64,000 bases of DNA, from contig JACQFE010000003.1 of assembly GCA_016200265.1 (NCBI GenBank), forward strand, positions 1,126-65,125. Reading direction: 5' to 3'. The notes below the pieces were generated by a model. That model did no database searches, was not told where the DNA came from, and saw only the letters and a list, made by a program, of their open reading frames with translations. The translations under genes were made by a program, and so were the position numbers. Source of the stretch: Planctomycetota bacterium. Its GTDB lineage: Bacteria > Planctomycetota > Phycisphaerae > UBA1845. Below are positions 1-15,659 of the stretch, piece after piece. The first letter of the stretch is position 1; each line of letters starts with the position of its first letter.

Positions 1-110
1 GATATCACGACCCACTAGATTTCATTTCAGTGTGAATGCCTGTCATCGTATACTGAGCATTCGTCCCCGGACGCAATTCGTCCGATCCCGCCGCTCAATT
101 GGGGACGTTC

Positions 111-1273
111 GTGAACAGTGCAGGTCATCAACTCCGATGTTTCGTGGCCTCTGTCGTGTTCTGCGCGCTCCATTGCGGCGAAAGCCGGGCGCAGTTCGTC
201 CCGGGCATATCTTCGTGCCTGATCCATCGATCAATCTATGCGGGACACATGACAACGGCATCCCCTTTGATAAGGAGTTTATCTACGAACTGAATCCGGA
301 AGACGGCAGGTCGAGGCTGTTCGCCACCATCCCCCGGGAGCTTTGCGGGGGGATCACCGGTATGGCGTTTTCGCCTGACGGCAGACGCCTGCGAGTCGCG
401 TCCCAGTACATCGGCGCGATCCTGGAGTTCGACGCCCAGGGAAATCTTTCCATTCCCCTTTATTGGCGCGACGGCATCGCCAGTCCCAGCGGACTCAATT
501 GCATTGCATACGATGACAACGGCAACTTCTACGTTGCCAACTACGGCGGGTTGAACATTCTCAAGTTTCCGGCGGGCGGCGGTCCGGCTGTGGTTCTCGA
601 CGAATACGACCCCAACGACGTGCCCAATCATGTGGCGACACCGATTGGTCTTGCGGTGGCACTGGATGGAGCTGTCTATGTCATGGACTATTGGCTCACT
701 AAGCTTGTGCGAATCACGCCACAAGGTCAGGCGTCGCTTTGGGACACATTCACCGGGCACAATGCTACCTTGGTGACTTTGACAGTCGATGAAGAGGGCA
801 CGGTGTTCCTCGGCGAGACTGATTTTTCCGGGGGAAGCGGGTTCTACCGTTATTTCCAAGGCGCACCGGCTCGGCAGCTGTTCGTGCTGTCGCTCACTCA
901 GACCGGTAGTGTGTGCAGCATTGAGATTTTGAACATGTCGATGGATCGCACTAGGTTGGCCGGTGCTGGTTCTTTTGTACCAATCCAAGGGGAATTGTGC
1001 ATCTCATCCATCGATCCGCTGACTGGATCTTATGAGTCACTGTTGTTCAACCCGCCTGCCTCTAAGGGAATGGCAATCGTCCCGCTTCGCGGTGATATCG
1101 ATCATAGTGGTGCGGCGAATCTGGCGGATTACGCCTTATTGCAAGGCTGTTTGGATGGTCCAGCGGGCGGCGCGATAACGGTAGAATGTGTTGCCACTGA
1201 CCTGGATGCAGATGGCGCGGTCAATCATTTTGATTTTCGTTTTTTCCAAATGGCGTTCGGCGGTAGACATTAA
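111..1273 (+). CDS. Secreted NHL/SMP-30-like beta-propeller protein with C-terminal dockerin-like (double EF-hand) module; apparent 1-nt frameshift near 204
   Basis: GTG at 111 after GGGGA gives a signal-peptide-like MNSAGHQLRCFVASVVFCALHCGESRA-QFVPG in the 99..293 frame. The body (HIFVPDP, GMAFSPDG, IAYDDNGNFYVAN, GLAVALDGAVYV) is in the 32..1273 frame. The junction reads CCG GG CAT. The tail GDIDHSGAANLAD...DLDADGAVNHFDF is dockerin-like. Confidence 0.7.
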
Positions 1274-1423
1274 TGATTAGTGTCACACGGTGCGTTCGTG
1301 CCACGGCGCGGGATCAGCAAACCCCGCTTCTCAATAGATTCTTGCCCCCATCGGCATTTTCCAAGAATTCATCGATCACCCCCGACGTTCTTCCTTTGTG
1401 GAATCATGTTCTCCCCCATTTTC

Positions 1424-1915
1424 AATCTGCGTAAATCCGCGGTTCTCGTCCCTTCGCCAGCCTTGTTTCGACTTTTCGATTTTTCGACGTTTCGACGATT
1501 CGACGATTCGACGATTTCACTCGCTCTTCGATCTTATTTTCAACATTCCGCATTCTGAATTCCGAATTCAGAACAGTGCCACACAATGACACTTGAGAAA
1601 AAATACTTTTCCAACCGAACCCATCTGAAAGTGTCGCTGAATATGCTGATTCGGGGGCGCTCGACGAAATTTTCCGACTCATAGTGCGCCGCGCAAGTTG
1701 TTGAATTGCCATGCGGTACTGTTTGCCTGTTGCCTTTTGAAATGCCGTTTCACGTGAAACAGAATTTGCGCCGATCTTTCAAGTGGCTCGTTTCAAGTCA
1801 AACAAATCTGCGTCATCTGCGGTTTCCGTCCCTTCGCTCTTCGCGATTCGCTCTTCGATCTTGCGTCCATTGCCCCGTTGCCCTCTTGCCTTGCTGCCTC
1901 GCCGCCTCTACCCGG
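1424..1915. repeat. Composite intergenic repeat region: two copies of a ~34-bp motif plus 7-8-mer tandem arrays
   Basis: aatctgcgt(aa/c)at(c)(c/t)gcggtt..cgtcccttcgc at 1424-1457 and 1805-1837. (ttcgacga)n at ~1466-1518. Perfect hairpin TTCTGAATT-CCG-AATTCAGAA at 1553-1573. cgctcttcgatctt follows both copies. Confidence 0.7.
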
Positions 1916-2473
1916 TCATTTCTCGATCGACTTCGGCATCCCTTCTTCAAGATCGACGCCCAGCCCGTCGGCCACGCGGTTGATGTAATTGAAAAAAGCG
2001 ATGGTTTGTGTGGCGTCGCTGATGGCCCGATCGTTCAGACCGTGTGATCGCAGCCGCTCAATATCGGACTGAGTGATCGTCCACGGCTCGCGAGTCAGCT
2101 TGATCGCGTGATCGCAAAGGGCGCGATCAACCGGCGACATCTTCGCCGTCGCGTAATCGATCATCACGCGGCGAACGAATTCCTCGTCGTGAACCTCCGA
2201 CCGGAGGTCGTACGAATGAGCAACCGTTCAGTAATGACAATGATTGGCGCGAGACACGACGACGGCCAGCATCTCCCGCTGTGCGCGGCTCAGCGGCGAT
2301 TCACCGCGAACGGCCGCCGTGTACAGATCGAGCATCCCCTGAAGCGCCGCCGGGCTCTGGCTTTGAATCTTGAGAATGTTGTAAACCCGTCCCGCGCGGC
2401 GCACTGCGTCATCGTAAATCGCGGCCAGCTTCCCGCCCGGCTCAGGCTGATCGATTGTCTGGATGAACGCCAT
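1916..2473 (-). CDS. Selenocysteine-containing AhpD/carboxymuconolactone-decarboxylase-like peroxidase (C-H-Y-U-T-V-A-H), 185 aa
   Basis: ORFs 2228..2473 and 1916..2167 are in the same frame and separated only by a TGA (2228-2230) and 20 open codons. The TGA occupies the second Cys of the AhpD CxxCxxxH motif. A SECIS-like hairpin lies downstream and tRNA-Sec is in the window. Confidence 0.9.
2192..2209 (-). promoter_or_regulatory. Bacterial SECIS hairpin
   Basis: On the minus strand, GACCTCC-GGTC-GGAGGTT forms a 7-bp stem with one G-U pair and a G-starting 4-nt loop. The loop is 25 nt downstream of the UGA. Confidence 0.8.
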
Positions 2474-2481
2474 GCAACGAC

Positions 2482-2661
2482 ATTGTCGATTGAAGTTTGT
2501 CGATTGTCGAATTTCGGCCGCCCATGGATTGGATTGTGCAACTTGCGTGTCCGAGCCGCGATTCAGTTATTTGATGAGATACGCTCCTTCACATTGAGCG
2601 AAGGCGGAGAGGTTGCGAAAGCCTTTTTCAATCGACAATCGAAAATCGGCAATCGACAATC
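2482..2661. repeat. Inverted pair of heptamer-like arrays (attgtcg / cgacaat) upstream of the selenoprotein gene
   Basis: attgtcgattg...tttgtcgattgtcg at ~2482-2510 and caatcgacaatcg...caatcgacaatc at ~2627-2661 are reverse complements. Confidence 0.55.
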
Positions 2662-2692
2662 AAATGAACGGAGCGGGAGGGATTCGAACCCT
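2662..2692. repeat. att core, tRNA-distal copy (duplicated tRNA-Ser 3' end)
   Basis: aaatgaacggagcgggagggattcgaaccct, identical to 14205-14235. It covers the T-loop symmetry AGGG-TTCGAAT-CCCT, the acceptor 3' strand and 7 nt beyond. Confidence 0.95.
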
Positions 2693-2890
2693 ACCGCACC
2701 CAGTCAAACGCGCATCGTAAAGCGTGAATCTGCAAGCACTTCCGAAAGTGGCTCGAAAAACATACGCACAGGCATACGCGACAAACGGCTCGCGGAGCTG
2801 ATTCAGCGATGGGATGAGCTGCCCGAACCGATGCGCGATGGCATCGCGGCGATGGTCCACGCGGCTTGCGGCGGTGAGTCGCGAAGTTAA
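2693..2890 (+). other. Detached C-terminal 65 codons of the integrase (rejoined in attP after excision)
   Basis: In the same frame through the att core as the integrase (NERSGRDSNP in both). Encodes TAPSQ...LAELIQRWDELPEPMRDGIAAMVHAACGGESRS and ends at TAA 2888-2890. No independent start is evident. Confidence 0.65.
2761..2780 (+). promoter_or_regulatory. Putative integrase arm-type sites (2 x CATACGC, 12-bp period)
   Basis: catacgcacaggcatacgcg is identical to 14073-14092 and lies 69 bp inside the distal att. Confidence 0.65.
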
Positions 2891-2930
2891 TCTTTTCGTT
2901 TGCGGGAAGGACGATTGATCGTCGTCCAAG

Positions 2931-3611
2931 TTGCATTACCCCGGTCGTTCGCACCTACGGCGATCGGGGTGGTGCAAACCTGCGGAAAGTAGGTGCAGCA
3001 TCACAACACGAACGCATGTCACACTCAAGAAACGCTTCTCCTGGGCGGCGTCCGAACTGGAATCGGTCATTGTCTCATTAGTAGGCGATGGTTCGAAATC
3101 GCGGTCGATGGTCGACAAGCTTCTCACTGGTGGACGTGAACGGGAAAAAGACACTCTTCCGTCAGTATACACCGTGGCGCACAAAGCAAATTGGAACGCG
3201 GACACCCGCAAGTATGCCGAGTGGAATGAAGAGATCGAGGCCTTACGCATGGCGTGCTGGTTGCTCGGGAAATACATGAGTGGCGATCCCCCAGAGGGAT
3301 TCATCAAAGAATTGCGAAAATGTGCTTCAAACCTACCGGCGGATGACATTGCGCCGGGCCTGAGCACTTTCGAAGAAATGAGATTTCAACTGTTGGTGTC
3401 GCGACCTCGACACAGGTGGCTGATGAGCGAATTCCATAGGCTATGCCGACGGAGCAACCTTCCGGCCTCGGAAAAGACGCTCAAGAATGTGGTGGACACT
3501 TTCGTTGAAAACGGCTTCGCTGAATTCACAAAGGGCGAAAAATCCGGGTTCGTTGTTACACCTACCGGGCAGGCCCATCACAAGATTCTGTCGGCTAGTC
3601 CATCCCGCTAA
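2931..3611 (+). CDS. Hypothetical protein, possible C-terminal winged helix; start uncertain
   Basis: Open 226-aa frame in element orientation. The C-terminus KTLKNVVDTFVENGFAEFTKGEKSGFVVTPTG resembles a recognition helix plus wing. Confidence 0.5.
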   Translation: MHYPGRSHLRRSGWCKPAESRCSITTRTHVTLKKRFSWAASELESVIVSLVGDGSKSRSMVDKLLTGGREREKDTLPSVYTVAHKANWNADTRKYAEWNEEIEALRMACWLLGKYMSGDPPEGFIKELRKCASNLPADDIAPGLSTFEEMRFQLLVSRPRHRWLMSEFHRLCRRSNLPASEKTLKNVVDTFVENGFAEFTKGEKSGFVVTPTGQAHHKILSASPSR

Positions 3612-3667
3612 GTTCCCTCAAAAATACGTCTCCGGTTCCCCACACGCCGGAATTCTCGTCGTAAATT

Positions 3668-3883
3668 GTGGGCATGGTATCGCTCAATGAATTCGACGCG
3701 CCGGTGACCGCTGCGGTGATGGCTCGCATCCTCGGCGTCAAAAGCGCATGGCTTATCACTGAGGCCAAGGCTGGACGGTTGCCACACATTCCGGCCGGCC
3801 AAACAGTTCTCTTCAACATCGACATCGTGAAGCGGTGCCTATTTGAACGATCGAAGGAGCTGCCATGCCGAGCGCAGGCGTGA
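3668..3883 (+). CDS. Excisionase-like HTH (HTH_17/MerR-like) protein
   Basis: VTAAVMARILGVKSAWLITEAKAGRLPHIPAGQTVLFNIDIVKRCL matches the Xis-type pattern (HTH, G.lP, strand, F....v). Confidence 0.7.
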   Translation: MGMVSLNEFDAPVTAAVMARILGVKSAWLITEAKAGRLPHIPAGQTVLFNIDIVKRCLFERSKELPCRAQA

Positions 3884-4122
3884 TCGTGAATTCGCAAGAG
3901 CTGTCACGGCTTGGTGCGTCGTGGAAGCCGGCCGACGTGGCGGCGTTTCTCAAGGTCGATCCGCGCACTTTGCGGAGGTTGATATCGAGCGGGGCATTTC
4001 CGGCAGCCGACATCGTTCTCACGGACAAAATCAAACGATGGCGGCAAGAGACGATCGATCGATGGATCGAGGCGCAGGCCAGCGATGGCCGCCGGATGCA
4101 GATTGCGAGGGCCGCCTGCTAA
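3865..4122 (+). CDS. AlpA-family phage regulatory protein
   Basis: WKPADVAAFLKVDPRTLRRLISSGAFPAADIVLTDKIKRWRQETIDRWIE. AAGGAG lies upstream. Confidence 0.85.
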   Translation: MPSAGVIVNSQELSRLGASWKPADVAAFLKVDPRTLRRLISSGAFPAADIVLTDKIKRWRQETIDRWIEAQASDGRRMQIARAAC

Positions 4123-4454
4123 ACCCATTCCAACCACCGGGTGAATTATTCGCCCCGCCGAAGGATAGCCTGGCCTTCGCAGTGGCCAGTCCAACATCGC
4201 GACGCGCGGCGAAGCGCGCAGAGCCGGGGGCGGCAACAATCGCGGCCCGAATCCTGAGCGAATTGCGACGCCAGGGTGCGGTGGGCTCGACCGATGACCA
4301 GTTGGAAATCGCACTACAAATTCCGGGCAATTCTCTTCGCGGCCGTCGGCAATGGTTAGAAAAGACGGGTCGCATTTGTAGGTCCAACCGCGAGCGCGAT
4401 ACGCGAACGGGATCGCCGGCGGTCGTTTGGGTGATTTCGGGGTGCGGGCGATGA
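4062..4454 (+). CDS. Phage-type winged-helix DNA-binding protein (start uncertain)
   Basis: RILSELRRQGAVGSTDDQLEIALQIPGNSLRGRRQWLEKTGRI...RDTRTGSPAVVW. The stop overlaps the next ATG (ATGA). Confidence 0.6.
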   Translation: MDRGAGQRWPPDADCEGRLLNPFQPPGELFAPPKDSLAFAVASPTSRRAAKRAEPGAATIAARILSELRRQGAVGSTDDQLEIALQIPGNSLRGRRQWLEKTGRICRSNRERDTRTGSPAVVWVISGCGR

Positions 4455-5467
4455 CGGCGGCCGCGAAACCACTCTTGCGGATCAAGGATTGGACCGAGTT
4501 CTTACCCTACGACAAAACGCGGAAGAATGCGTCTGAGAAGGGCGCCCTGGGGCATTATAAGCAACCCACAAAGCACGACTCCTGCGGAATTCGCAATGTC
4601 TCAAAACACCCGCACTCGGCTGCGGTTTATGGATGTTGGATTCTGATGGTCCAAGTTGCGGCAAAGTGCCAACCCCGAGGCACCCTGCGAGGTCGCGATG
4701 GGGCGCTGGATGCGTCAGACCTAGCGGGCCGCACGGGCTTTCCGGAAAAGTATTTTCGCGAGGCGATCGAAGTTCTACTCGATCCGAAAATCGGCTGGTT
4801 GGAGTTGGTGGGGAGTGAAGAGGCACAGTCATTGACACCCGCAAATGTCGCAAGCAACAGGACGTTTCCGGAAAGTTCCGTACGCGAACGTAAAGACACT
4901 GGTGTTGACGAGAATCACCGGAATCGTACGGAAAATTCCGGCTATCCTAGTGTAGTTCAGTCTAGTGTAATTAAGACCCCCCTACCCCCCAAGGGGGGAG
5001 CAGGCGCGTGGGAGCAAATCGTCGCATCATTGTCGCCTGAACTGAAAACACCCGCGTTCGAAACCGCGTGGCGAGAGTGGATCGACTACGGCAAGGACAG
5101 CAAGAAAAAACTGACCGCAGCCAGCGTATCGAAACAATTGAAACTTCTGGAGGAGCTGGGCCATGACCGAGCGATCACTTCGATTGATGCTTCCATCCGA
5201 AACGGCTGGGCCGGACTATTCGAACCAGACAAGGGGAGAGCTGGTAACACAACATCAAAAGGCGGCGAAGCGAATCGACCCGGAAGGATGGAAGCGAAAC
5301 CTGGGAAGTATGATCGTTTCCGCAAAGCGAACCAAGTTGAGCCGGGCGTTCTACATGAGAACGCTGAGGGGCCCGCGATGGCCCTTCGAATTGCCGAAGA
5401 TGGCACGCGATCCGCAGCGGGTGACGGAGTGCTTGCGCGATCCGCTGCGGGCGGCGGTTCTCGGTAA
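4451..5467 (+). CDS. Phage replication initiator / replisome-organizer-like protein
   Basis: N-terminal LRIKDWTEF...wHTH, a KTPLPPKGG linker and a C-terminal AWREWIDY...KKLT....KQLKLL..LGHD.A...I..SI.NGW.GLFEP domain. It sits directly upstream of a DnaC-like ATPase. Confidence 0.8.
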   Translation: MTAAAKPLLRIKDWTEFLPYDKTRKNASEKGALGHYKQPTKHDSCGIRNVSKHPHSAAVYGCWILMVQVAAKCQPRGTLRGRDGALDASDLAGRTGFPEKYFREAIEVLLDPKIGWLELVGSEEAQSLTPANVASNRTFPESSVRERKDTGVDENHRNRTENSGYPSVVQSSVIKTPLPPKGGAGAWEQIVASLSPELKTPAFETAWREWIDYGKDSKKKLTAASVSKQLKLLEELGHDRAITSIDASIRNGWAGLFEPDKGRAGNTTSKGGEANRPGRMEAKPGKYDRFRKANQVEPGVLHENAEGPAMALRIAEDGTRSAAGDGVLARSAAGGGSR

Positions 5468-5960
5468 GGGTGCATGGCCGATTTTTCTTCACGGCGAGGC
5501 CGGGTCTGGGAAAACGCTCGCTGCGCTGTGCGTCGGGGATTGGTGCGGAGACTGCGCGTACGTCGATATGCCAACCTTGTGTCACATGGTCAACGACGCG
5601 GCTTTCGGTCGGCTCTTAGATGATGACGGGAGTGCCATTCAGGTGACAGCAGTTTGGAAAAATTGGGCCAACGCGAATCTCGCGATCATCGACGAGATTG
5701 GGTCACGCGGCAAAGTTTCGGACGCGCATTTCGAAACGTTGAAGATGACGCTCGATTCGCGGGAGCGGCTGAACAAACCATTGATCGCCATTTCAAACCT
5801 AGACCCGGAAGCACTGGCGAACGTCTACGATGATCGAATCGCCAGCCGATTGAGCGCGGGCACGGTCTGTCGAGTTGACGGCGATCGACGGTTGGAAATT
5901 CACGACGCGCAGGCCGTTGATTCACCTTCGCCGGCGGCGGCAAAAAGGCGGGTTGGATGA
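5310..5960 (+). CDS. DnaC/IstB-like AAA+ helicase loader (start uncertain, 5310-5400)
   Basis: Walker A HGEAGSGKT, Walker B LAIIDEIG, and PLIAISNL...YDDRIASRL. Confidence 0.85.
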   Translation: MIVSAKRTKLSRAFYMRTLRGPRWPFELPKMARDPQRVTECLRDPLRAAVLGKGAWPIFLHGEAGSGKTLAALCVGDWCGDCAYVDMPTLCHMVNDAAFGRLLDDDGSAIQVTAVWKNWANANLAIIDEIGSRGKVSDAHFETLKMTLDSRERLNKPLIAISNLDPEALANVYDDRIASRLSAGTVCRVDGDRRLEIHDAQAVDSPSPAAAKRRVG

Positions 5961-6595
5961 TTCCTGAAACGAACATCGGGGTGCCGCTAGTCGACTGGAT
6001 GCACTGCATTTGCGGTGTGAGTGCAACGCCCGAGCCGAATTGCGAGCCGGGTTTGTCATCGCGCGCGGTTGATGGCCGGCTGCGGATTCGAATCGTCGGG
6101 CACGTCGCACGCAGGAAAACATTCGAGAGCATCGGAAACGCCTGGGCAAGCTGGCATGAACTCGCAATCTTGATTACTGGCGCGGCGGCCGATCCAAGCA
6201 TTCGCGGCGTCGATTTGCTTATCGAGGATTCGCGCAGTGCGAATTTTCATGGATACGACCGCGTTGAATTAGCAATCAGAGAATGCTGGCGGTCACGGAA
6301 AAAGGTGCGAACATACATCGAAGGCGATTGTTTCGGCGGTGCATTTTTGGTGGCACTTGCCACTTCATCGATCACGTGCGCTTCACGATCGCGAGTGGGG
6401 ATGCTTTCCATGTCCGACACAACAGCGGACCTGTGCTTGGTCAGCGGGATGGCGTCGGTCTGCGCGGACATGCTCAACGAGCTGCGTCCAAAGACACCGG
6501 CAGAGATTCGAGAGCGGATTCTCGCAGGTGACATTTTGAGTGCAGAGCAGGCAGAGGCCGCGAAACTTCTGCGGATAGGGAGGGTGCGGCGATGA
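5957..6595 (+). CDS. Degenerate S49/ClpP-crotonase-fold protein (probable pseudo-protease)
   Basis: AAADPSIRGVDLLIEDS...KKVRTYIEGDCFGGAFLVALATSSITCASRSRVG aligns by eye with the S49 core. The nucleophile motif ASAAY reads FGGAF. Confidence 0.65.
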   Translation: MIPETNIGVPLVDWMHCICGVSATPEPNCEPGLSSRAVDGRLRIRIVGHVARRKTFESIGNAWASWHELAILITGAAADPSIRGVDLLIEDSRSANFHGYDRVELAIRECWRSRKKVRTYIEGDCFGGAFLVALATSSITCASRSRVGMLSMSDTTADLCLVSGMASVCADMLNELRPKTPAEIRERILAGDILSAEQAEAAKLLRIGRVRR

Positions 6596-7575
6596 ATCAC
6601 CAGAGTTCAATTTCAGGGCAGGGAATTCCCGGCAACGTTGCGTTGCGCTCTCCATTGGCAATGAGCAGCGACGAGCTGAATCGCGTCGTTAGTATATGCC
6701 AGTCCATCGATCCCGGGATGATTGAATCAATTCGCGTAAATCGATCCGCGGCTGCACAGCGGGCGCAATCCGAGCGCAGGCCGCAAATGCCTTCAACCTG
6801 CAACACAGTGCAAGCAATTGCACAATGGCAGGCCGCGATGCGACCGTCTGCGCCGCGGGCGATCCCGCTGCCATTTCAGCGGATTGGAAGCGTGGCAATC
6901 GTTCACCTGAATGGCTTTTTGGCAAAGTACCCAAGTTGGCTTTTTTATTTCGTGAGGGGAACGTCGACCCTAGATTTCGCAGAGGCAGTGTCGGCGGCAG
7001 CCCGCGATACCCTGGTCAAGTCAATTGTGCTGATAGTCGATTCGGGCGGCGGTGAAGTGGCTGGAGCATTTCAAGCAGCTCAGGCCGTCTATGATGCACG
7101 CAAAAAGATGCGCGTCGTGGCAGTGACCAGTGATTTGAATGCCAGCTCGGCATTTTTGATTTCATCGCAGGCGAATGAAGTTGTCATAAACGAATCAGGG
7201 TTTTTGGGATCGATCGGGGTCTATGCGATTTTGGCCGACTACAGCGGAATGTACGAACGCGCTGGAATTAAAGTGAATGTAGTTAGAGCCGATGGTGCGG
7301 ACTTCAAAGGCATTGGTGAACCCGGATCCGAAATCACGCCGGCGCAGCTTGCCGAAGTGAAGCGCCGCGTCGAGCAGACTCATAATCTTTTTTTGCGGCA
7401 CGTGGCCCGCGGGCGAAATCTGCCCGTCGATCGAGTGAGAGCGTTGGCGACGGGACAGGCGTTCGGATCCAGTGAGGCAATTCGTAATAAATTAGCCGAT
7501 CGCGTGGTTTCCGATCCTGAATCAGTGATCACTGAGCTGGATCGACCCTTCGCAGAGCAGTTAGCCAAAATGTAG
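6592..7575 (+). CDS. S49-family (SppA / lambda gpC-like) head-maturation protease
   Basis: SIVLIVDSGGGEV, LNASSAFLISSQA (Ser nucleophile), GSIGV, FKGIG (Lys), F...VA.GR. Confidence 0.9.
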   Translation: MNHQSSISGQGIPGNVALRSPLAMSSDELNRVVSICQSIDPGMIESIRVNRSAAAQRAQSERRPQMPSTCNTVQAIAQWQAAMRPSAPRAIPLPFQRIGSVAIVHLNGFLAKYPSWLFYFVRGTSTLDFAEAVSAAARDTLVKSIVLIVDSGGGEVAGAFQAAQAVYDARKKMRVVAVTSDLNASSAFLISSQANEVVINESGFLGSIGVYAILADYSGMYERAGIKVNVVRADGADFKGIGEPGSEITPAQLAEVKRRVEQTHNLFLRHVARGRNLPVDRVRALATGQAFGSSEAIRNKLADRVVSDPESVITELDRPFAEQLAKM

Positions 7576-7660
7576 GCTGAATTTGAATCGGGGATGCACT
7601 GAGCAGGGGAATTGTGAATCGTTTTTTGACGGTCAACAGACGAACAAAGGAGAAAATTCT

Positions 7661-7837
7661 ATGGGATCAGCGACAGAGCAGTGGAATGCGGCGATTGAAG
7701 AAAAAATGGGCCAGGGAATGGACAAGGTCCGTGCGACGCGCGAGGTCGTGCACGAGAACCCGGAACTGCATCGCGCCTACATAGAGGAATTCAACGCGGC
7801 ACGTGGCCGGAAAGCTCGACTTCCCGAGCTGGTTTAA
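7661..7837 (+). CDS. Small helical protein, possibly scaffold-like
   Basis: AAGGAG RBS at 7647-7652; 58 aa containing ATREVVHENPELHRAYIEE; directly downstream of the protease. Confidence 0.7.
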   Translation: MGSATEQWNAAIEEKMGQGMDKVRATREVVHENPELHRAYIEEFNAARGRKARLPELV

Positions 7838-7894
7838 TTTTCGTCCGATGGTTTTCATCCGATTTTGAAACGATTGGCAACTGTGGGAGGAACA

Positions 7895-8746
7895 ATGCGA
7901 ATGGCTGCGACGAAAACGCCGCGAGAAAAATCAGCCGGGGACGGGGTTATTGTGGTGGGGCCGGCCAACGCTCCGAATCATTCGGATGCTGAATACGTTG
8001 GCCGGCGCGCGAAGGAATTCCGCATCGTCGAGGACATGCTTTTGCGTGTCGCCCGCGGCAGCGGTCAGCTCGATTTCGATGAACGCGAATTCGTATTATG
8101 CGCGACGAAATGGCCCATGGCGCGGATCGATTCGACAATCGGTGGCCTTAGAGAATCCCTTGAGAAGGCGCAGCGATGCGGCACGCGATCCGACCTGAAT
8201 GTCCTCAAAGAGCGGGCCGGCCTGGTTGAACGATCAGCAGAGGAAACCCGCGAACGATTACGCCCGGAGCTGGAGCGAATTCAATCTGAAATCGAGCGTG
8301 CGGAGGCGGCCGCCGGTGAGGCGCGGCGGAATTGCGAGTCAATGGAGATTGCGAACCACCGGATGTGCGGCGCCTTGACAGGGCTTTTTCCCTGGTTGGA
8401 TTCGCGGCGGGAGTGGCGCCGCCAACTGGTTGAATCGACATGCCGCGAATTGAGCGAGGTCAGGCAGGCAATCGGTCGGTTGGACTCGATCGCGTCGATT
8501 CGATTCGACGAATGGGATCGAGTCAAAGCACATTGCGCGCATCTTGCGTTGATCGATGAGGCACTCGAAACCAATTCGGACGGTTGGCCCACGCGCTGCG
8601 TGTGGGATGAATATATAACCCGGGTGAACTCACCGCGGGATGAGTTGGTAGCGCGCGGTCGTGAACTTGAACGCGAGAAGGCGGCAGCGTTTTCACGAAT
8701 AGATGCTGAATTCGTTGAGGAATTTATTCCGCGGCTGACCGGCTGA
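7895..8746 (+). CDS. Coiled-coil hypothetical protein
   Basis: GGGAGG RBS; long E/R/A-rich heptad stretches. Confidence 0.75.
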   Translation: MRMAATKTPREKSAGDGVIVVGPANAPNHSDAEYVGRRAKEFRIVEDMLLRVARGSGQLDFDEREFVLCATKWPMARIDSTIGGLRESLEKAQRCGTRSDLNVLKERAGLVERSAEETRERLRPELERIQSEIERAEAAAGEARRNCESMEIANHRMCGALTGLFPWLDSRREWRRQLVESTCRELSEVRQAIGRLDSIASIRFDEWDRVKAHCAHLALIDEALETNSDGWPTRCVWDEYITRVNSPRDELVARGRELEREKAAAFSRIDAEFVEEFIPRLTG

Positions 8747-8750
8747 ATCA

Positions 8751-8936
8751 ATGGTGCCCTTCCGCCCACTAGCGGCCTGGCTCTTCTGGCATGGCGGCCC
8801 GGCCGCGGTGGGTGCTGGCAGCGATGATGACCTGGGCCGGCTGCGGGACTTGCGTTTGACGCAAGTCGGGCGTTGCCAAGCTGGACGATCGCTGGGTCCT
8901 TTCCAGCCACCTGCCGCGCAAGGCTTTGCCCGATGA
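8751..8936 (+). CDS. Hypothetical protein
   Basis: Short ORF starting 5 nt after the previous stop, in element orientation. No motif recognised. Confidence 0.3.
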   Translation: MVPFRPLAAWLFWHGGPAAVGAGSDDDLGRLRDLRLTQVGRCQAGRSLGPFQPPAAQGFAR

Positions 8937-9108
8937 TCTTGGCCTTTTTGCGTGTACATCGCGTGATTTGGCAACGAGTGAGTTTCCCAAGAAGGTTTGC
9001 GGGCGGTTTGCGGGGCGGGCTGTCGCGGGGTCGTGTTGGTCGTGCGAGCGATGGTGCGTGCGGTTTGCGGCGAGCGTTGTCCGTTAACGAGCGAGATTGC
9101 GAGGGAGC

Positions 9109-10674
9109 ATGTCCGGAGCACAAGCACAAGTCGAAGTGGTGATGACCAGCGATCAGGCGCGCTTCTGGCGCGACCTGCAAAAATCGGTCGATAAACTCGA
9201 TCACGTCAAGGGCAAGCTCGATGACGTGGCCGGCGGCGCTGGGCGAGCTGGCAAGGAATTTGCACACTTCGGGGCCAGTGCGATCGAACAGCTGGCGGGA
9301 ATGGCTGCCGGGTTCGTGTCCGTTGAAAAAGCGCTCGAGTTGTCGGTTGAAGGATTCGACCTCTGGCTCGAAAAAACGCGGCAGGTCGGTGAGGCCAGCC
9401 AGAAACTCGCGACCGCCGGAAAGTCGCTCGCCACAGCCCAACGGCCGGGAATGTCCGGACTCGCATTCAAAGAGGGCGCGGAGCTGCTTTCGCAATTCGG
9501 ATTCACGGATCAACAGAAAGGCTTCGATCTAATCCGACAATTGCAGGGCGTGCGAGGCGGCGATCTAACGGCCGGTATGGAATCTGCGAGGACTGTGTTG
9601 CAAGGTTGGCGAGTTGGATTGCCGGTTGAACTCGCTTCCGAGACCGAAGCAAAGGGCGTTTCGCTCGGACTTCCGCCGGGCGTTTTGATCAAGCGAACAT
9701 TTGAAGCGGCGCGATTCGCAGGCGCGAATCCCAGCGACATGCTGGGCGGCGCCGGTGGACTCGTCGATTTTCGAGGGGAAGATCGATTTGCACTTGCCAT
9801 GCTCGCGGATTTGGTGAAACAAAAGGGCGCGGGCGGCGCGGCTTCATTCGAGCAAATCGGCCGCATTCTTTCCGGGCAGGATCAAGACCCGCATTGGAAG
9901 CGGATGGTCCGCAGTATCGAGCGAGAACTCGGCCCAGGCAAAGAAAATCTGCTTCGCGGATTGCTGGGGAAGCGCATCATTGAACCTGAGCAATTGCGAA
10001 AAGCGGGGGTGAAGGGTCGGGCCGGCGTGCCAGAGGCGATGAGTTTCGCGCTGAAGGATTTTGGCGCGATCCTCGCCGGCAAGTACGACCTCGAGCACTA
10101 TGACGAAGCCAACATTTTTGAGAACTTGTTCGCGCAGCTTCAGCGCGAAGTTCCGGGACTCCGCGACGCCGAAGCTAACCGGATTCTGGGGGCAAAGTTT
10201 GAACACGAGCTCGCCGCCGATCCGAAGGCGGCATTCGCTCGAAAAATGGAAACGGAAGAGCGCCTTCGTGGCCGGGCGCTACAAAAAATGGGTCTCTCGA
10301 GTGTCGGTCCATTTGGAGCATTCGCAACCTACGATGAAAGCGGCCGCGCGATTCGCAGTATAGGTGAAAACGTCTTCGGACCGTTCGGCTGGCGGGGTGT
10401 GTTGACACGCCTGGAAGTGCCGCGCTACGGCACTTCGATGGTGCCGGCTGAGGATGAAATAGAATATGAAATGGCCGAGCTTCGCCGCGGCGATCGCAAG
10501 CGAGAAGTTGAGGTGCGACGGCCGCGACTTGGCGGCGCCGAATCGACTGGCGCTGGGGGCGGCGACTTGAGAGCGGCAATCCGGGAACTTGCTGACACCA
10601 ACATCTTGCTGCGATCCGCGATTCATAGCTTTCGCGGCGGGCCGACACTCGGGAAACCGGGGGCCGATCGCTAG
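9109..10674 (+). CDS. Tail tape-measure-like protein (521 aa)
   Basis: GAGGGAG RBS. The N-terminus QVEVVMTSDQARFWRDLQKSVDKLDHVKGKLDDVAGGAGRAG...LAGMAAGFVSV and a long Ala/Gly/Leu-rich helical body are typical of tape measures. Confidence 0.6.
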   Translation: MSGAQAQVEVVMTSDQARFWRDLQKSVDKLDHVKGKLDDVAGGAGRAGKEFAHFGASAIEQLAGMAAGFVSVEKALELSVEGFDLWLEKTRQVGEASQKLATAGKSLATAQRPGMSGLAFKEGAELLSQFGFTDQQKGFDLIRQLQGVRGGDLTAGMESARTVLQGWRVGLPVELASETEAKGVSLGLPPGVLIKRTFEAARFAGANPSDMLGGAGGLVDFRGEDRFALAMLADLVKQKGAGGAASFEQIGRILSGQDQDPHWKRMVRSIERELGPGKENLLRGLLGKRIIEPEQLRKAGVKGRAGVPEAMSFALKDFGAILAGKYDLEHYDEANIFENLFAQLQREVPGLRDAEANRILGAKFEHELAADPKAAFARKMETEERLRGRALQKMGLSSVGPFGAFATYDESGRAIRSIGENVFGPFGWRGVLTRLEVPRYGTSMVPAEDEIEYEMAELRRGDRKREVEVRRPRLGGAESTGAGGGDLRAAIRELADTNILLRSAIHSFRGGPTLGKPGADR

Positions 10675-10676
10675 TA

Positions 10677-11039
10677 GTGAGCGGATCAATGAACGACGAC
10701 GAAATTTGCGAGGCATTTGAGAAATTGAACGACCAGTTGACCGAGGCCGGACGATTGCTCGATGAGCATCTTCAACGGATTACGGCGATGATGGTCAGGT
10801 ACGAAGGGTCGGTCGATTCGCTGCGACATCAACTGAGCGATCACGTCGTGACACGAGAACTGACCATCCTCGATTCCGCGGGGCAAAAGCGTGCGTCGTT
10901 GTCGGTGCTCGATGGTCGCGCCTTGTTGATCTTGGCTGACGACGCGGGCCGAAATGTGGTTTATGCGCCGTCGTTGCCAGGCGAATCGAGCGAGAATTCC
11001 GGCTCGCCGGTCGATGACACAGATCCGCAAGGGCCGTGA
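10677..11039 (+). CDS. Hypothetical protein, N-terminal coiled coil plus beta-rich C-terminus
   Basis: VVTRELTILDSAGQKRASLSVLDGRALLILADDAG; abuts the previous stop. Confidence 0.65.
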   Translation: MSGSMNDDEICEAFEKLNDQLTEAGRLLDEHLQRITAMMVRYEGSVDSLRHQLSDHVVTRELTILDSAGQKRASLSVLDGRALLILADDAGRNVVYAPSLPGESSENSGSPVDDTDPQGP

Positions 11040-11262
11040 TTTTCGCCTGAAACCGTACCCTATTGACGCCGGCGGCGGTTCGATTGAGAATGATCGGGCC
11101 GACGGATGTAGAAGCACCCGCCGGCCCTGATCACACGATCGTGGGTTAACACGAGTCGCATGACTGAACGCATCATATTTGACCATGCACTTCATTCAAC
11201 CCGCGATCTTGCTGCGCGCGTGCGCGGCACCAGGTCCACACTTCTAGCCAGGAGCATTCATC

Positions 11263-11916
11263 ATGGAATTCGCGATTAAACGGTATCGAAGAGAAAAGGC
11301 ACGAATCAAACAGTTGGCCAGAGGCTCGAGGCGATTGAATTGGAAAAGGCGATCCCGCGGCGGAGGCGGCGGCGATCGGGAATCGAACCGACGCCCACAA
11401 GCGAAGGCAGACGAGAGCGAGGCAACCGGGTTCATGGTGAGGATCCCGACCGGGACGCTCGTCAACGCATTGGTCGACTCGTGCGGCGGTCACGTTGAAT
11501 GGTGCAAGGCTGTCCTGATCGGCGGCGGCACGGCTGTTGGGTGGGTCAGGGTCATCCAACCCGACGATCCATCGCCCGCACTCAAGGTGCTCGTCGGAAA
11601 AGTTTTTCACGCCCCATGGCACAACATCGAAGCCCATGTCGAGGGGTTGGCCGAAAAGGGCGGCCGCAGAGATCGAGATTGCAAAAAACTCGACGATGAG
11701 ATGGACCTACTTTCCATCGAAACGAAGAGCGTCGCGGCGTGCAGGCTGCTACTCGAAGTGGAAACCAATCAGAGCTATGAATCGATGAAGCCGGATGACA
11801 GTTCCTACTTGCACGCAGCGATGGAGCTGGTCGAGGAAGTGGTCGACAAGGTGCGCGGTGTTCGGCGATCGCTGTATCCAGACGGCAGTGAGGGCGACGC
11901 ACGTGGAAGCAAATGA
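11263..11916 (+). CDS. Hypothetical protein
   Basis: AGGAG RBS at ~11250; 217-aa ORF in element orientation. Confidence 0.65.
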   Translation: MEFAIKRYRREKARIKQLARGSRRLNWKRRSRGGGGGDRESNRRPQAKADESEATGFMVRIPTGTLVNALVDSCGGHVEWCKAVLIGGGTAVGWVRVIQPDDPSPALKVLVGKVFHAPWHNIEAHVEGLAEKGGRRDRDCKKLDDEMDLLSIETKSVAACRLLLEVETNQSYESMKPDDSSYLHAAMELVEEVVDKVRGVRRSLYPDGSEGDARGSK

Positions 11917-12201
11917 CCCACGGGCTTGCTACTGCCCTGTGTGCGAGGGGCTTTGCTCGACGATGGCCGCGAGCTGTCCGCGGTGCGGGCATCCGCTGGC
12001 AAACCCGGCCGACAGCATCGGCGGGACCGTGCCGGCGGCGGTCGCGTTCCGATGTTGGTCAATCGCGGCACGGTCGGCGGTGGCAGTCCGGGCGATTTGA
12101 TGGGCGCGGCACTATGCGGCCTCGGAGCGATGTTGCTGGGGGCTTTGCTGCGTGCCGTCGCGGGAATCTGGTACGGCGTCGAGCGGATCGCGAGGCGGTG
12201 A
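11903..12201 (+). CDS. Zinc-ribbon plus transmembrane protein, possibly frameshifted near 12050
   Basis: CPVCEGLCSTMAASCPRCGHPL in one frame and hydrophobic MLVN...GAALCGLGAMLLGALLRAVAGIW in another. The junction reads TTC CG ATG. Confidence 0.45.
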
Positions 12202-12217
12202 ACGGAGGGTGTGTAAA

Positions 12218-12697
12218 ATGACGGATTCAGCATCGACGATGACCATATCCATTGACCAGGCTGGGCGGATGACTGGGATCGGGAAAGATCGACTGCGGGA
12301 GCTGATGCACAATGGAACGCTCAAGGGCTATGTGAGCAAGGCGGGGAAGCGATTCAGGCCGTCGGTTTATTCGTTGCTGGTGAACGTGCTGGGCTATCCC
12401 AGCGACGTGGCGGGCAAGGTGGTAGTCGACGCACTGGCCGAGCACGCTGCGTGCAACACAGCGTCGCGGACGGCGTCCAGCACGCGGCTGGCGCTTCCAC
12501 GTCCGCCGATACGAAACCAGCGCGGAGCTGTCGCTGTCGTTCGGCAAGTCGAACCGGATGGCGTTCACCATGGTCGGGATCAAATTTTCGTCAAATCTGA
12601 TCCTGACGTCGACGCGATCCTGATAGACATGCGTCGGAGGCGTGCGGCGCGGCGTGAACGCTGGCGAAATGAAGGCCGCGCAAAGTTGGTTGGGTGA
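12218..12697 (+). CDS. Excisionase-like HTH protein
   Basis: GGAGGG RBS; TISIDQAGRMTGIGKDRLRELMHNGTL HTH; immediately upstream of the integrase. Confidence 0.7.
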   Translation: MTDSASTMTISIDQAGRMTGIGKDRLRELMHNGTLKGYVSKAGKRFRPSVYSLLVNVLGYPSDVAGKVVVDALAEHAACNTASRTASSTRLALPRPPIRNQRGAVAVVRQVEPDGVHHGRDQIFVKSDPDVDAILIDMRRRRAARRERWRNEGRAKLVG

Positions 12698-12774
12698 ACC
12701 GTTGACGCGATGCGTGTGTAGAAGAGGGTCGGAGACAATGGCGGGGTCGATCAACCCCTGGGAGTAGGTGCAAA

Positions 12775-14526
12775 ATGTCGAGAATCTTCAAGCCGAAGTA
12801 TCCGAAAATGCGGATCGTGCATGGCGCCGACGGCAAGCCGGTGATGGAACGGCGCATCGCGAAGCGGGGGCCGAACAAAGGCCAGCTCGTCACAATCCCC
12901 AAGCGTGAACCCGTCGTCGATTCCAACGGCCAAATCGTCTACAAGCGCTCCAGTCGATGGGCAATCGAGTACACGGATGCTCGTGGTGATCGGCGCACTG
13001 CGGCTGGACACACTGACAAAGAGGCGACGGAATCGAAGGCAGCGAAGATCGTCACGCGCATCGCCAGGCAGAAAGAGGGCATTTTCGATACTGACGTGGC
13101 GCACCTGCAGACACCGGTCAAGGTTCACGCGGCTGCATGGATTGCCGACCTTGAACGGACCGGCAGTTCCAAGGGGTACATTCGGATGGTGCGCGCCCGC
13201 GTCGGCCGTCTTTGTCTCGAGCTGCAATGGACGACGCCCCCCACCATCGATGCGGAATACGTAGCGGCGTGGCTGGCCGCACGCAAAGCGGGCGGGATGA
13301 AGCCTCGGACCCTGAATCACTACCTGGACGCTCTAAATGCTTTCTGCAAGTGGGCGAAGGTTGCAAAGCGTTTCGAAGTCAACCCCGTCGAACACGTTAC
13401 AAAGACGACGGTCGGGCAATCATCAGAGACGCGCCGAGCACTGTCAGCGGATGAGCTGGGGCGGCTGGTCGTAGTGCATCCAATTCGCGGGCGGGTATAT
13501 CTCACAGCGGCGCTGACGGGACTACGTAGAAGTGAGCTGGCGGCGCTCCAATGGGGTGACATACAGCTTGGCGGGGCGAATCCGCATATCTTGCTACGTG
13601 CTGAAACGACGAAATCGAGGCGTGCCGACACGATCCCTTTGAACGATGAAATCAGCCGGCGTCTGCGAGAGTGGCAACCCCCCCACTGTCTGCCCGCGGA
13701 CCGGGTATTTCAATCAATTCCACAGTGCCGCGCGGCCAGGGCCGCGACCGAAAAAAGGCCAGGCAAGTGCGCCAGCGCCTTCGATCGTGATCTTGCGGCC
13801 GCGGGAATCGAGAAAGAAGTCGATGGGCGGCGCGTCGATCTTCACGCGCTGCGAAAAACCATGAATGTGCTGTTGGCAAAGAGTGGCGTCGATGTGCGTG
13901 ACGCGATGACGTTGATGCGCCACACGGATATCCGCTTGACGACGAAGGTCTATGCCGATCCGCGGCTACAAGATCTTCACGGTGCGATGAACAAGATTCC
14001 GATCGTCGCGCCCGAGCCCGAGCGAGCACGCGCTTTCGGAACATGCGATGCAAGGCCAGACATACGCAAAAGCATACGCACAGGCATACGCGTCAGTGCG
14101 TCCGCGAGTGGCCGCAAGCGGGTCAAAATGCACATTGAACCGTCGGACGCGGAAGCACGGCGAACAAGCGCAACCGCTGGTGAGTGCCATAGTTATGACA
14201 CAAAAAATGAACGGAGCGGGAGGGATTCGAACCCTCGGTGCAGTTTCCCGCACACCGCATTTCCAGTGCGATCCCTTCAGCCACTCGGACACCGCTCCAT
14301 GTGTTTTCGCGACACGAGAATCCATCAACGATTGGCCTTGGCGCCAAGGATCGATTCCAATTTGCGCGAACCAGCGAATTTTGGCGGGATTGAGAACATC
14401 GGTCAAGCTGATGACGACCTTCGACGCATGGTTCAAGGGCAACTTCGCAATACGGTTGACATCACCGGGTCCGCACTTACATTGCATCTTCGGCCAAGGC
14501 GCAAGCCGATGCCCGAGGGCTCGTAG
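12775..14526 (+). CDS. Tyrosine recombinase (integrase); frame runs through the att core and antisense through tRNA-Ser
   Basis: Catalytic R (TGLRRSEL), K (TTKSRR), HxxR (HALR), H (MRHTD) and Y (TKVY). 487 codons lie up to the att end and 96 beyond it. Confidence 0.95.
   Translation: MSRIFKPKYPKMRIVHGADGKPVMERRIAKRGPNKGQLVTIPKREPVVDSNGQIVYKRSSRWAIEYTDARGDRRTAAGHTDKEATESKAAKIVTRIARQKEGIFDTDVAHLQTPVKVHAAAWIADLERTGSSKGYIRMVRARVGRLCLELQWTTPPTIDAEYVAAWLAARKAGGMKPRTLNHYLDALNAFCKWAKVAKRFEVNPVEHVTKTTVGQSSETRRALSADELGRLVVVHPIRGRVYLTAALTGLRRSELAALQWGDIQLGGANPHILLRAETTKSRRADTIPLNDEISRRLREWQPPHCLPADRVFQSIPQCRAARAATEKRPGKCASAFDRDLAAAGIEKEVDGRRVDLHALRKTMNVLLAKSGVDVRDAMTLMRHTDIRLTTKVYADPRLQDLHGAMNKIPIVAPEPERARAFGTCDARPDIRKSIRTGIRVSASASGRKRVKMHIEPSDAEARRTSATAGECHSYDTKNERSGRDSNPRCSFPHTAFPVRSLQPLGHRSMCFRDTRIHQRLALAPRIDSNLREPANFGGIENIGQADDDLRRMVQGQLRNTVDITGSALTLHLRPRRKPMPEGS
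14061..14092 (+). promoter_or_regulatory. Putative integrase arm-type sites (3 x CATACGC, 12-bp period)
   Basis: catacgcaaaag-catacgcacagg-catacgcg, ending 113 bp before the att core. Confidence 0.65.
14205..14235. repeat. att core, tRNA-proximal copy
   Basis: Identical 31-mer to 2662-2692, overlapping the last 24 nt of tRNA-Ser. Confidence 0.95.
14212..14298 (-). tRNA. tRNA-Ser (GGA), CCA not encoded
   Basis: GGAGCGG acceptor, TCGCA-CTGGAAA-TGCGG anticodon arm, long variable arm, GAGGG-TTCGAAT-CCCTC T arm. Confidence 0.95.
14456..14483 (+). promoter_or_regulatory. Putative sigma70 promoter of tRNA-Ile
   Basis: TTGACA-N16-TACATT, ~34 nt upstream of the tRNA. Confidence 0.5.
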
Positions 14527-14590
14527 CTCAGTTGGTTAGAGCGCGTCGCTGATAACGACGAGGTCCGAGGTTCGAATCCTCGCGGGCCCA
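14517..14590 (+). tRNA. tRNA-Ile (GAT), CCA not encoded
   Basis: GGGCTCGTAGCTCAGTTGGTTAGAGC...CGTCG-CTGATAA-CGACG...GTTCGAATCC...GGGCCCA. Confidence 0.97.
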
Positions 14591-14724
14591 GTACTATGGA
14601 AGCCTCCGGATTCCGCGTGGCCTATAGTCTATGGACGCAGGAATGGTTGGAAATCGAACTTTTCTATCCCGACGAAAATCCGTCCTCAAGAGTCGTTGGC
14701 CTGCCCTTCCGATAGAATGGGTGT

Positions 14725-15168: not shown

Positions 15169-15236
15169 CCTACGTGCCGCGAAGGATTCCAATCGGGCAA
15201 CGTCTCAGGCGCTTGTCCCGAGTGTGGAACACGAAT

Positions 15237-15659
15237 ATGACACCACGCCGTGCGAGAAACTTGAGCGCACTCATTGCGATTCTCTGTGGAAGCGTGTTGC
15301 TAAGCTCGCTATTTCTAGACTATGGCTATACGGGGCACGGTGTGATTGTAGCAATCACGGAAGGGTCAGTTGTTGGGAGTCCGTTGTCACCCGGCCAAGG
15401 TTGGGCCGTTTGGAGCTGGCACTGGCCGCGCACTAATTACTGGCTTCCTCATCTATTTTCGGATCCACGAATCTTCGAAATTGCCATACCCCTCTGGATA
15501 CCGACCGCCTTGTCAATCGTTGTCACCGCGCTCTTTCATCACAGAGTACATGCCACGAAACCCGGCTGTTGTCGCAAGTGCGAATACGACCTTACCGGAA
15601 ACGTATCGGGCACCTGTCCCGAATGTGGAACACGAACGCATCGAGAAACAGCAAGCTAG
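15237..15659 (+). CDS. Membrane protein with C-terminal CxxC..DLTGNVSGxCPECG zinc ribbon
   Basis: IPLWIPTAL TM segment, then CRKCEYDLTGNVSGTCPECGT. Confidence 0.8.
   Translation: MTPRRARNLSALIAILCGSVLLSSLFLDYGYTGHGVIVAITEGSVVGSPLSPGQGWAVWSWHWPRTNYWLPHLFSDPRIFEIAIPLWIPTALSIVVTALFHHRVHATKPGCCRKCEYDLTGNVSGTCPECGTRTHRETAS

Follow-up and report, generated by a model that had tools for sequence, protein, structure and literature searches.

We analysed a 64,000-nucleotide stretch of DNA from a Planctomycetota bacterium of the Phycisphaerae (assembly GCA_016200265.1, contig JACQFE010000003.1, positions 1,126 to 65,125 of the forward strand), hereafter called the window, and describe an apparent integrative element in it whose integrase gene runs through the element's own attachment (att) site. 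An exact direct repeat of 31 bp, AAATGAACGGAGCGGGAGGGATTCGAACCCT, is present at 2662-2692 and 14205-14235 on the plus strand and constitutes the att core; these are its only two copies in the whole 4.56-Mb assembly. ARAGORN places a tRNA-Ser(GGA) gene on the minus strand at 14211-14299, at the proximal copy, and the core is therefore the antisense of the 3' end of this tRNA. The distal copy has the appearance of a displaced tRNA-Ser fragment, the usual signature of a tRNA-gene island, and we read 2662-14235 as an integrative element of ~11.6 kb inserted at the 3' end of tRNA-Ser(GGA). On this reading 2662-2692 is the attL core, 14205-14235 is the attR core, and the tRNA-Ser(GGA) gene is the integration target, restored by the core that the element brings along.

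The integrase gene crosses the attachment site

The open reading frame (ORF) of the integrase in the integrated state spans 12775-14526 on the plus strand and encodes 583 aa, with an N-terminus (MSRIFKPKYPKMR) that agrees with those of its homologues. Residues 245-396 (13507-13962, plus strand) match the tyrosine recombinase catalytic domain (Pfam PF00589, E 8.3e-17), and R251, K280, H357, R360, H383 and Y393 (the latter at 13951-13953) are invariant among 40 relatives. The presence of PF00589 together with this R-K-H-R-H-Y set marks the predicted protein as a tyrosine recombinase of the lambda-Int type, and the phage database contained no close homologue of it. All of the catalytic residues are located upstream of residue 477, where the core starts, and the ORF then reads across the core (residues ~477-487) as NERSGRDSNP without encountering a stop codon. 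An initial annotation, made from the DNA alone, had pointed to this uninterrupted passage and to the location of the entire catalytic set ahead of att, unlike in SSV1-type integrases, and both observations hold.

The codon phase of the core is identical at the two ends of the element, with codon starts at 2660 and 14203, and at the distal end the frame stays open until a TAA at 2888-2890. In an excised circle, the 487 codons of 12775-14235 would be continued by the 65 codons of 2693-2887 to give an integrase of 552 aa, as compared to 583 aa in the integrated state; the frame and the lengths initially proposed were thus reproduced from the codon phases. The segment 2693-2890 (plus strand) would accordingly be the P' arm of attP and, in the same frame, the last 65 codons and the stop codon of the circle-form integrase. 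In the integrated form it is replaced by a tail of 96 codons plus stop (14236-14526, plus strand), as judged from the ORF and the tRNA positions. The initial annotation gave the correct length for this tail but had it read entirely from antisense tRNA-Ser DNA, which applies only to the first ~21 codons (14236-14299), the remainder being host spacer up to a tRNA-Ile gene (14517-14590). The layout of the gene, and the exchange of C-termini that it implies, are established at the level of the DNA sequence. Taken alone, the open distal frame would be unremarkable, since ~31% of 65-codon frames placed arbitrarily in the window, including those within real genes, have no stop codon; what raises it above chance is that relatives of the element share both the peptide and the frame.

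A repeat scan of the DNA on either side of the core identified putative arm-type sites with the sequence CATACGC. Three copies, 12 nt apart, are found in the P arm (14061-14091, plus strand), 114-144 nt ahead of the core. They are part of the integrase ORF, in which they are read as IRKSIRTGIR. Two further copies, likewise 12 nt apart, are found in the P' arm (2761-2767 and 2773-2779, plus strand), 69-87 nt after the distal core. Of the 11 matches to CATACGC in the 64 kb, five, all on the plus strand, are concentrated in the two arms. Circularisation would place the core between the two sets of repeats, an arrangement resembling lambda attP, and the whole of attP would therefore lie inside coding DNA. 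Analogous arm repeats were present in the relatives L001, L013 and L105. In the homologues P0003-P0009 and P0013, a conserved NIRSDIRK(E/G) occurs at residues ~430-450, at the position of the window's IRKSIRTGIR. It appears to be an arm-type DNA repeat read as protein, so that part of the apparent protein conservation of this segment, which we call the linker, would be conservation of DNA.

Homologous integrases run into their RNA targets

A search with the fused 552-aa protein yielded 132 matches at E ≤ 0.001. The best 120 of these are ~310-630 aa long, and the source names, in the few cases where one is given, are Phycisphaerae or Planctomycetota. The C-termini of the homologues correspond to antisense readings of T-arms and acceptor stems, from a wide range of tRNAs and also from transfer-messenger RNA (tmRNA), with core readings such as WRRGESNPRP..., AGDRTRTGDIQLGKLTFYH, GFEPT... 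and GIEPPSRD. Altogether, 159 loci from genome, viral and metagenome collections were examined, the relatives having been gathered with a 15-sequence alignment; their hosts are Planctomycetota and Verrucomicrobiota. At the 3' end of 53 complete integrase ORFs of the integrated type there was a tRNA or tmRNA gene in the opposite orientation, and in 52 of the 53 the ORF extends at least 15 nt into this gene (median 61 nt), with a median of 93 codons from the catalytic Tyr to the 3' end of the RNA. Homologous integrases therefore do not stop before att, which establishes the arrangement as a general one in this group and speaks against a concern raised at the outset, namely that the window's gene had merely lost its stop codon. 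The targets include tRNAs for Gly, Ser, Thr, Gln, Leu, Asn, Pro, Asp, His, Lys, Met, Trp, Tyr and Val as well as tmRNA. The loci at the 3' end of tmRNA (ssrA), which ARAGORN misses in tRNA-only mode, form a subgroup (L003, L029, L048, L098 and L121, and also the core of L001) with integrases ending in W(R/S)RGESNPRPATA....LRA.

The distal peptide is in frame with the integrase

Both ends of an integrated element could be compared for relatives in which the distal end fell within the fetched flank (10 kb), giving six pairs: the window, L006 (tRNA-Thr), L013 (tRNA-Asp), L038 (tRNA-Trp), L165 (tRNA-Gly) and a second element in the window's own genome (C78/C80, tRNA-Glu). Each pair has a different core, and in all six the core stands in the same codon phase at both ends; for frame-matching alone, this corresponds to P = (1/3)^6, or ~0.001. 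In the second element of the window's genome, the integrase is located on C78 at tRNA-Glu and the tail on C80. The two contigs share a 140-nt repeat (C78:24604-24743, minus strand, and C80:32634-32773) that reaches 112 nt past the tRNA part into the P arm and is thus longer than a normal att core; it may have been left behind by a previous resident or by a tandem copy. The same genome contains additional weak tail matches on C61, C28 and C53.

The tail was also observed fused to the integrase in at least four independent attP-form contigs (L001, L002, L105/L106 and L107). In the proteins P0018 and P0066, a tRNA-like core is followed by W.[EQ]LP[QE]A[IV]RA.IVA.V, which is the motif of the window's distal peptide. 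In the contig that holds P0018 (L001, 19.5 kb), int lies between other genes of the element, a tRNA gene is absent, and GGCATATAC occurs twice before the core and once after it; this contig is an unintegrated attP form. L105 and L106 represent one element in two samples, with arm repeats that read RMASCMA on either side of a GIEPP core. L107 contains an exact repeat of 3,748 nt with a period of 7,639 nt (1-3748 and 7640-11387) and carries two copies of one integrase, the first of which reads ...DEAGELGFEP and then the tail ...LPADLAEVAAAWDTLPAAIRAAIVGLVKSQR* (attP form), and the second ...DEAGELGFEP and then antisense tRNA-Gln (attR form). This contig would be either a true tandem dimer or an assembly path via circle-derived reads, and either way both junctions of one element are represented. 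Taken together, the six integrated pairs and the fused forms bear out the initial proposal of a distal peptide that is conserved and frame-locked to att.

The C-terminal module is conserved as protein and widespread

The conserved portion of the tail is a module of two helices, DKRLAELIQRWDELPEPMRDGIAAMVHAA, encoded at 2780-2866 (plus strand) and supported by a tail profile (A3), AlphaFold2 and codon positions. Over 27 aligned codons from 13 elements, the mean pairwise identity was 0.55, 0.64 and 0.37 at codon positions 1, 2 and 3, respectively; the W, L and P of the module are invariant or nearly so, and their third positions vary. Third positions are thus the least conserved, which establishes that the tail is under selection as a protein and not as a DNA site.

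When the A3 profile, made from eight tails, was compared with 1.84 billion representative proteins, we obtained 9,684 matches at E ≤ 1e-3, including 243 at E ≤ 1e-10. No model for the tail exists in Pfam or NCBIfam, and the motif strings were not found in the literature searched. The best 150 of the 9,684 matches are almost all ORFs of 42-176 aa, in which a median of 9 residues separates the motif from the protein end. A tRNA-antisense-like peptide precedes the motif in 47 of 149 best tail matches, compared to 2.0 expected from shuffles, and in 45 of the 88 for which at least 45 upstream residues were called, with a median of 49 residues from core to W. The called starts of these ORFs are mixed (M 108, L 21, V 20), and their distances vary. 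From their sequences, the small tail ORFs appear to be the orphan attL fragments predicted by a gene-split model.

Longer proteins with the tail were found six times (P0018, P0066 and P0274-P0277), and all six carry PF00589. The peptide search suggested initially thus returned orphan ORFs just inside tRNA-derived cores and, among long proteins, integrases exclusively. P0274-P0277 belong to visibly different integrase subfamilies, as judged from their N-termini and bodies, and have the same module behind linkers with core-like peptides, showing that the module reaches well beyond the immediate family of the window's integrase. These four came from a consensus-like tail; a word-indexed search with P0018's own tail found P0018 alone. 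In P0274, GGAESGAL is repeated on either side of the core, and the same string recurs upstream of many orphan tails; it probably represents arm-type sites read as protein.

Some small ORFs (P0124, P0126, P0127, P0160, P0176, P0213 and P0251) contain two tandem tail motifs, which might be stacked attL remnants of successive integrations at one site. Another tail ORF, L168:3770-4114, opens with a long tRNA-antisense peptide (MGRGGVEPPTHGFSVRCS) and is situated between HTH_3 repressor-like genes and a small terminase-like gene.

Structure models

AlphaFold2 modelling, which the initial annotation had recommended, was run on the attP-form homologue P0018 (40% identical) with a 63-sequence alignment from which orphan tails were left out. 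The model has a folded body (residues 1-390, pLDDT mostly >90), then a segment with pLDDT <50 (residues 392-486) whose coding DNA comprises the P arm, the core and the beginning of the P' arm, and finally two helices at 494-505 and 508-521 (pLDDT 78-89). Among PDB structures it is best matched by lambda Int in its full length (1z1b, E 2e-11, over 370 aligned columns), suggesting, on the basis of this homologue, a three-domain fold with an N-terminal arm-binding domain. The Brujita integrase structure 5vfz is also among the fold matches. The window's own tail, folded together with 57 tails, gave helices at 40-51 and 56-69 of the 2660-2887 peptide with pLDDT 87-96. The models are consistent with an integrase composed of a ~400-aa body (arm-binding, core-binding and catalytic), a disordered linker of ~110-120 aa and a two-helix module of ~30 aa.

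Other features of the element and its occurrence in metagenomes

Apart from the integrase, the element encodes an 85-aa HTH_17 protein (3865-4122, plus strand; Pfam PF12728, E 3.4e-10), a candidate excisionase or directionality factor, as well as an S49 peptidase (6592-7575) and a weakly matching DnaA/DnaC-like ATPase (5163-5960). A Pfam scan of ten element ORFs gave no match to capsid, portal or terminase. Just outside the element, a 40-nt direct repeat with 85% identity and a spacing of 401 nt is present at 15196-15235 and 15597-15636.

From the window sequence, the attP joint is predicted to read TGCCATAGTTATGACACAAA, core, ACCGCACCCAGTCAAACGCG, and the attB joint AAAATCGGCAATCGACAATC, core, CGGTGCAGTTTCCCGCACAC. 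The locus is present in four groundwater runs, for which we used Logan contigs. These are built with k=31, which equals the length of the core, and attL/attR are therefore indistinguishable from attP/attB in them. In these contigs (window 2300-14700), the element forms a separate unitig of 11,572 nt bounded by the 31-mer core, whose node has a depth of 75. The word depth of the element is below that of both flanks in X1, X3 and X4 (in X1, 34.7 vs 47.6 and 42.3); assembler word depths are rough, and the lower value may reflect a subpopulation of cells that lack the element.

Interpretation and alternative explanations

In the myxophage Mx8, attP is located inside int and the C-terminus of the integrase is exchanged on integration (PMC6070905, PMC4383910). 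We consider it quite probable that the window is best explained in the same manner, by an integrase gene that spans attP and loses its module on integration, with a switch function surmised from Mx8. In the mechanism that we propose, attP, comprising the P-arm repeats, the 31-bp core and the P'-arm repeats, would be located in and around the linker-coding DNA, and integration would cut the integrase gene at the core. The circle would contain the whole gene, encoding the 552-aa protein with the module. In the chromosome, the catalytic body is kept with 96 residues of antisense tRNA and spacer at its end (583 aa), and the module is stranded at attL, 11.5 kb away, as an orphan coding fragment. 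The full gene would be restored by excision or by a tandem copy. By analogy with the Mx8 forms IntP and IntX, the module-bearing form may be the integration-proficient enzyme and the prophage form a less active or altered one, in which case the DNA rearrangement would serve as a switch of commitment or directionality and keep the integrated state stable. Judged by that analogy, a functional switch is plausible.

As for what the module would contact, it is shared by integrases with different DNA targets, which makes something generic a more likely partner than att DNA: a second protomer of the integrase, a protein of the excisionase type such as the HTH_17 protein, or a host factor. A role as a degradation tag is less likely, because variable residues follow the module. 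A broader version of the proposal is that a large and apparently undescribed group of integrases, distributed over several subfamilies and mainly in Planctomycetota and Verrucomicrobiota, with ~10^4 tail-bearing clusters, encodes its own switch, in which the linker-coding DNA doubles as attP and the 30-aa module is either needed for attP x attB recombination or restricts the enzyme to this reaction. We put this version forward tentatively, as a little closer to doubtful than to probable.

A group of related integrases bears on how the layout arose. In this sister clade (L115, L116, L117, L120, L124, L130, L133, L140, L141, L148, L151, L157, L160 and L084), the integrases (YTDEKLLPLAAEL..VPAIP) end ~45-60 residues past the catalytic Tyr with a two-helix tail, DLQALVA.LS..QRQAL..ML.RS..G; the linker contains no tRNA-like peptide, and there is no adjacent tRNA. 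The comparison suggests that a fixed module is the ancestral state of the enzyme and the linker-hosted attP a derived feature, the homology of the tails being weakly supported (hhalign E 0.003, probability 11%).

The sister clade also provides an argument for the main alternative explanation, according to which the layout is real but neutral, or an outright inactivating lock-in, attP having drifted into a dispensable linker without any evolved switch. In the lock-in version, a single integrated copy may need a tandem or second copy in order to leave, like the archaeal 'suicidal' integrases. A similar two-helix tail behind a linker of only ~20-30 aa with no core-like peptide, in plausible register with the window's tail by the E-value given above, would fit such a drift, as would the tandem dimer L107, which retains one intact gene. 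On the other hand, the low hhalign probability for the sister-clade tail weakens the comparison, the persistence of the layout over many tRNA targets and several integrase subfamilies suggests maintenance, and the prophage form of Mx8 is reported to have altered activity rather than none (PMC6070905). We regard a neutral or inactivating layout as unlikely, though it deserves to be kept in mind.

Another possibility would be that the tail is no part of the integrase at all, but either a small gene in its own right, located at the element's left end, or a P'-arm DNA signal in which the integrase frame is open by accident. That the best 150 database matches are small called ORFs of 42-176 aa, and that arm-type DNA repeats occur in the tail region, would be in line with this. 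It is difficult to reconcile, however, with the frame lock in 6 of 6 pairs, with continuous ORFs in four independent attP forms and in P0274-P0277, with the heterogeneous starts of the orphans at variable distances, and with third codon positions being the least conserved (0.37 vs 0.64 at position 2), and we find it very improbable. Least credible is a chance read-through in a GC-rich genome, in which a stop codon was lost and the distal frame happened to be open. The 31% of open frames in the window would allow for this coincidence at a single locus, but the relatives, with their conserved peptide, frame lock and open linker, refute it, and we give it hardly any weight.

Returning to an integrase gene that spans attP and a switch at its end, several points weigh against it. 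The functional consequence rests on analogy with Mx8, whose integrase has no significant similarity to that of the window and whose tail is without the motif. The module is followed by a median of 9 variable residues and is thus not the extreme C-terminus, and partner integrases were looked at for a minority of the 9,684 tail matches. Two orphans did not fit readily: on the contig L166, no tyrosine integrase is encoded in the 10 kb downstream of the orphan, and the orphan of L168 is located among phage genes with no adjacent integrase and no partner within 10 kb. Lastly, the attP junction, activity and expression of the window's element were not observed, and the Logan contigs gave no sign of free circles, as element depth was not above flank depth.

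Implications

An enzyme that rewrites the end of its own gene with each reaction would carry a one-gene memory of the free versus the integrated state. To our knowledge, such rewriting by an integrase has so far been studied experimentally only in Mx8. If the switch reading is true, every integration removes the module and every excision restores it, and Mx8 would be one instance of a general strategy and not a curiosity. A recent review treats an att site inside int as an archaeal peculiarity (PMC8371274). The principle itself is already known, because Mx8 and Mx9 show attP inside int with a swap of the C-terminus; for the scale, the conserved module and the linker-hosted attP, we could not find a description in the literature searched. 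A portable, conserved module behind an attP-holding linker in thousands of elements makes the idea testable in many systems. The arrangement also explains a very large set of unannotated small ORFs beside tRNA fragments, as well as integrase genes that seem over-long and overlap tRNA genes, and it turns the tail into a sequence marker by which the far end of such islands can be recognised. The module could be useful for engineering one-way tyrosine integrases if it controls direction.

Comparison with known systems

Integrases of the SSV type have their gene broken in two by integration (PMC7253208), and this 'suicidal' type has been called exclusive to archaea (PMC8371274). The window's element resembles it in having the attachment site inside the integrase ORF and a gene that is split by integration into a tRNA gene (PMC7253208, PMC8371274). 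In contrast to SSV1-type integrases, however, all of the catalytic residues are kept in one ORF, within the 487 residues upstream of the core, and the C-terminal module alone is exchanged.

Integration-dependent immunity in BPs and Brujita is also based on a rearrangement at attP, which gives a phage protein one C-terminus in the free state and another in the integrated state. In these phages it is the repressor gene that contains attP, and a degradation tag at the C-terminus is what is exchanged. In the window, attP is instead in the integrase gene, and the swapped segment is a two-helix hairpin with variable residues after it (the tail ends in ...HAACGGESRS), not a terminal tag. In lambda, attP is located outside int, and Int ends shortly after the catalytic Tyr. 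The window's integrase shares with lambda Int the predicted fold of the body (1z1b) and arm-type repeats on either side of the core, whereas lambda Int is without the linker and the C-terminal module.

The closest known case is Mx8, where IntP becomes IntX (also called IntR); the initial annotation had missed it. In Mx8, attP is within int, integration makes a recombinant gene with a new 3' end, the integrase is modified and not inactivated, and the situation in Mx9 is similar (PMC6070905). In the Mx8 record, a tRNA-like core read as STGLEPV is found in Int 112 residues from the C-terminus, and the gene next to int, uoi, is an HTH gene. Both systems have a tyrosine integrase of ~530-550 aa, attP in the 3' part of int, past every catalytic residue, a target tRNA gene that is read in antisense, and a new 3' end of int after integration; in the window the core falls at residues ~477-487, past Tyr393, and 65 residues are exchanged for 96. 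For Mx8, Tojo in 1996 and Magrini in 1999 reportedly found that 112 residues are replaced by 13, that the C-terminal region is needed for integration and that IntX is less active, and Magrini and colleagues are said to have described the prophage form as less active or differently directed, with the integrated state being stabilised (summarised in PMC6070905). The two integrases differ in that they share no significant sequence similarity (BLASTP E 0.93; hhalign probability 13.5%), and the Mx8 tail is without the W..LP...R..I.AMV module. The module of the window's type is conserved over thousands of clusters in several subfamilies, with a disordered, attP-holding linker between body and module, and its group is found in Planctomycetota and Verrucomicrobiota, as opposed to the Myxococcus host of Mx8. 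Judging from these comparisons, the window's element appears to be the same kind of thing as Mx8, but not a close member of its family.

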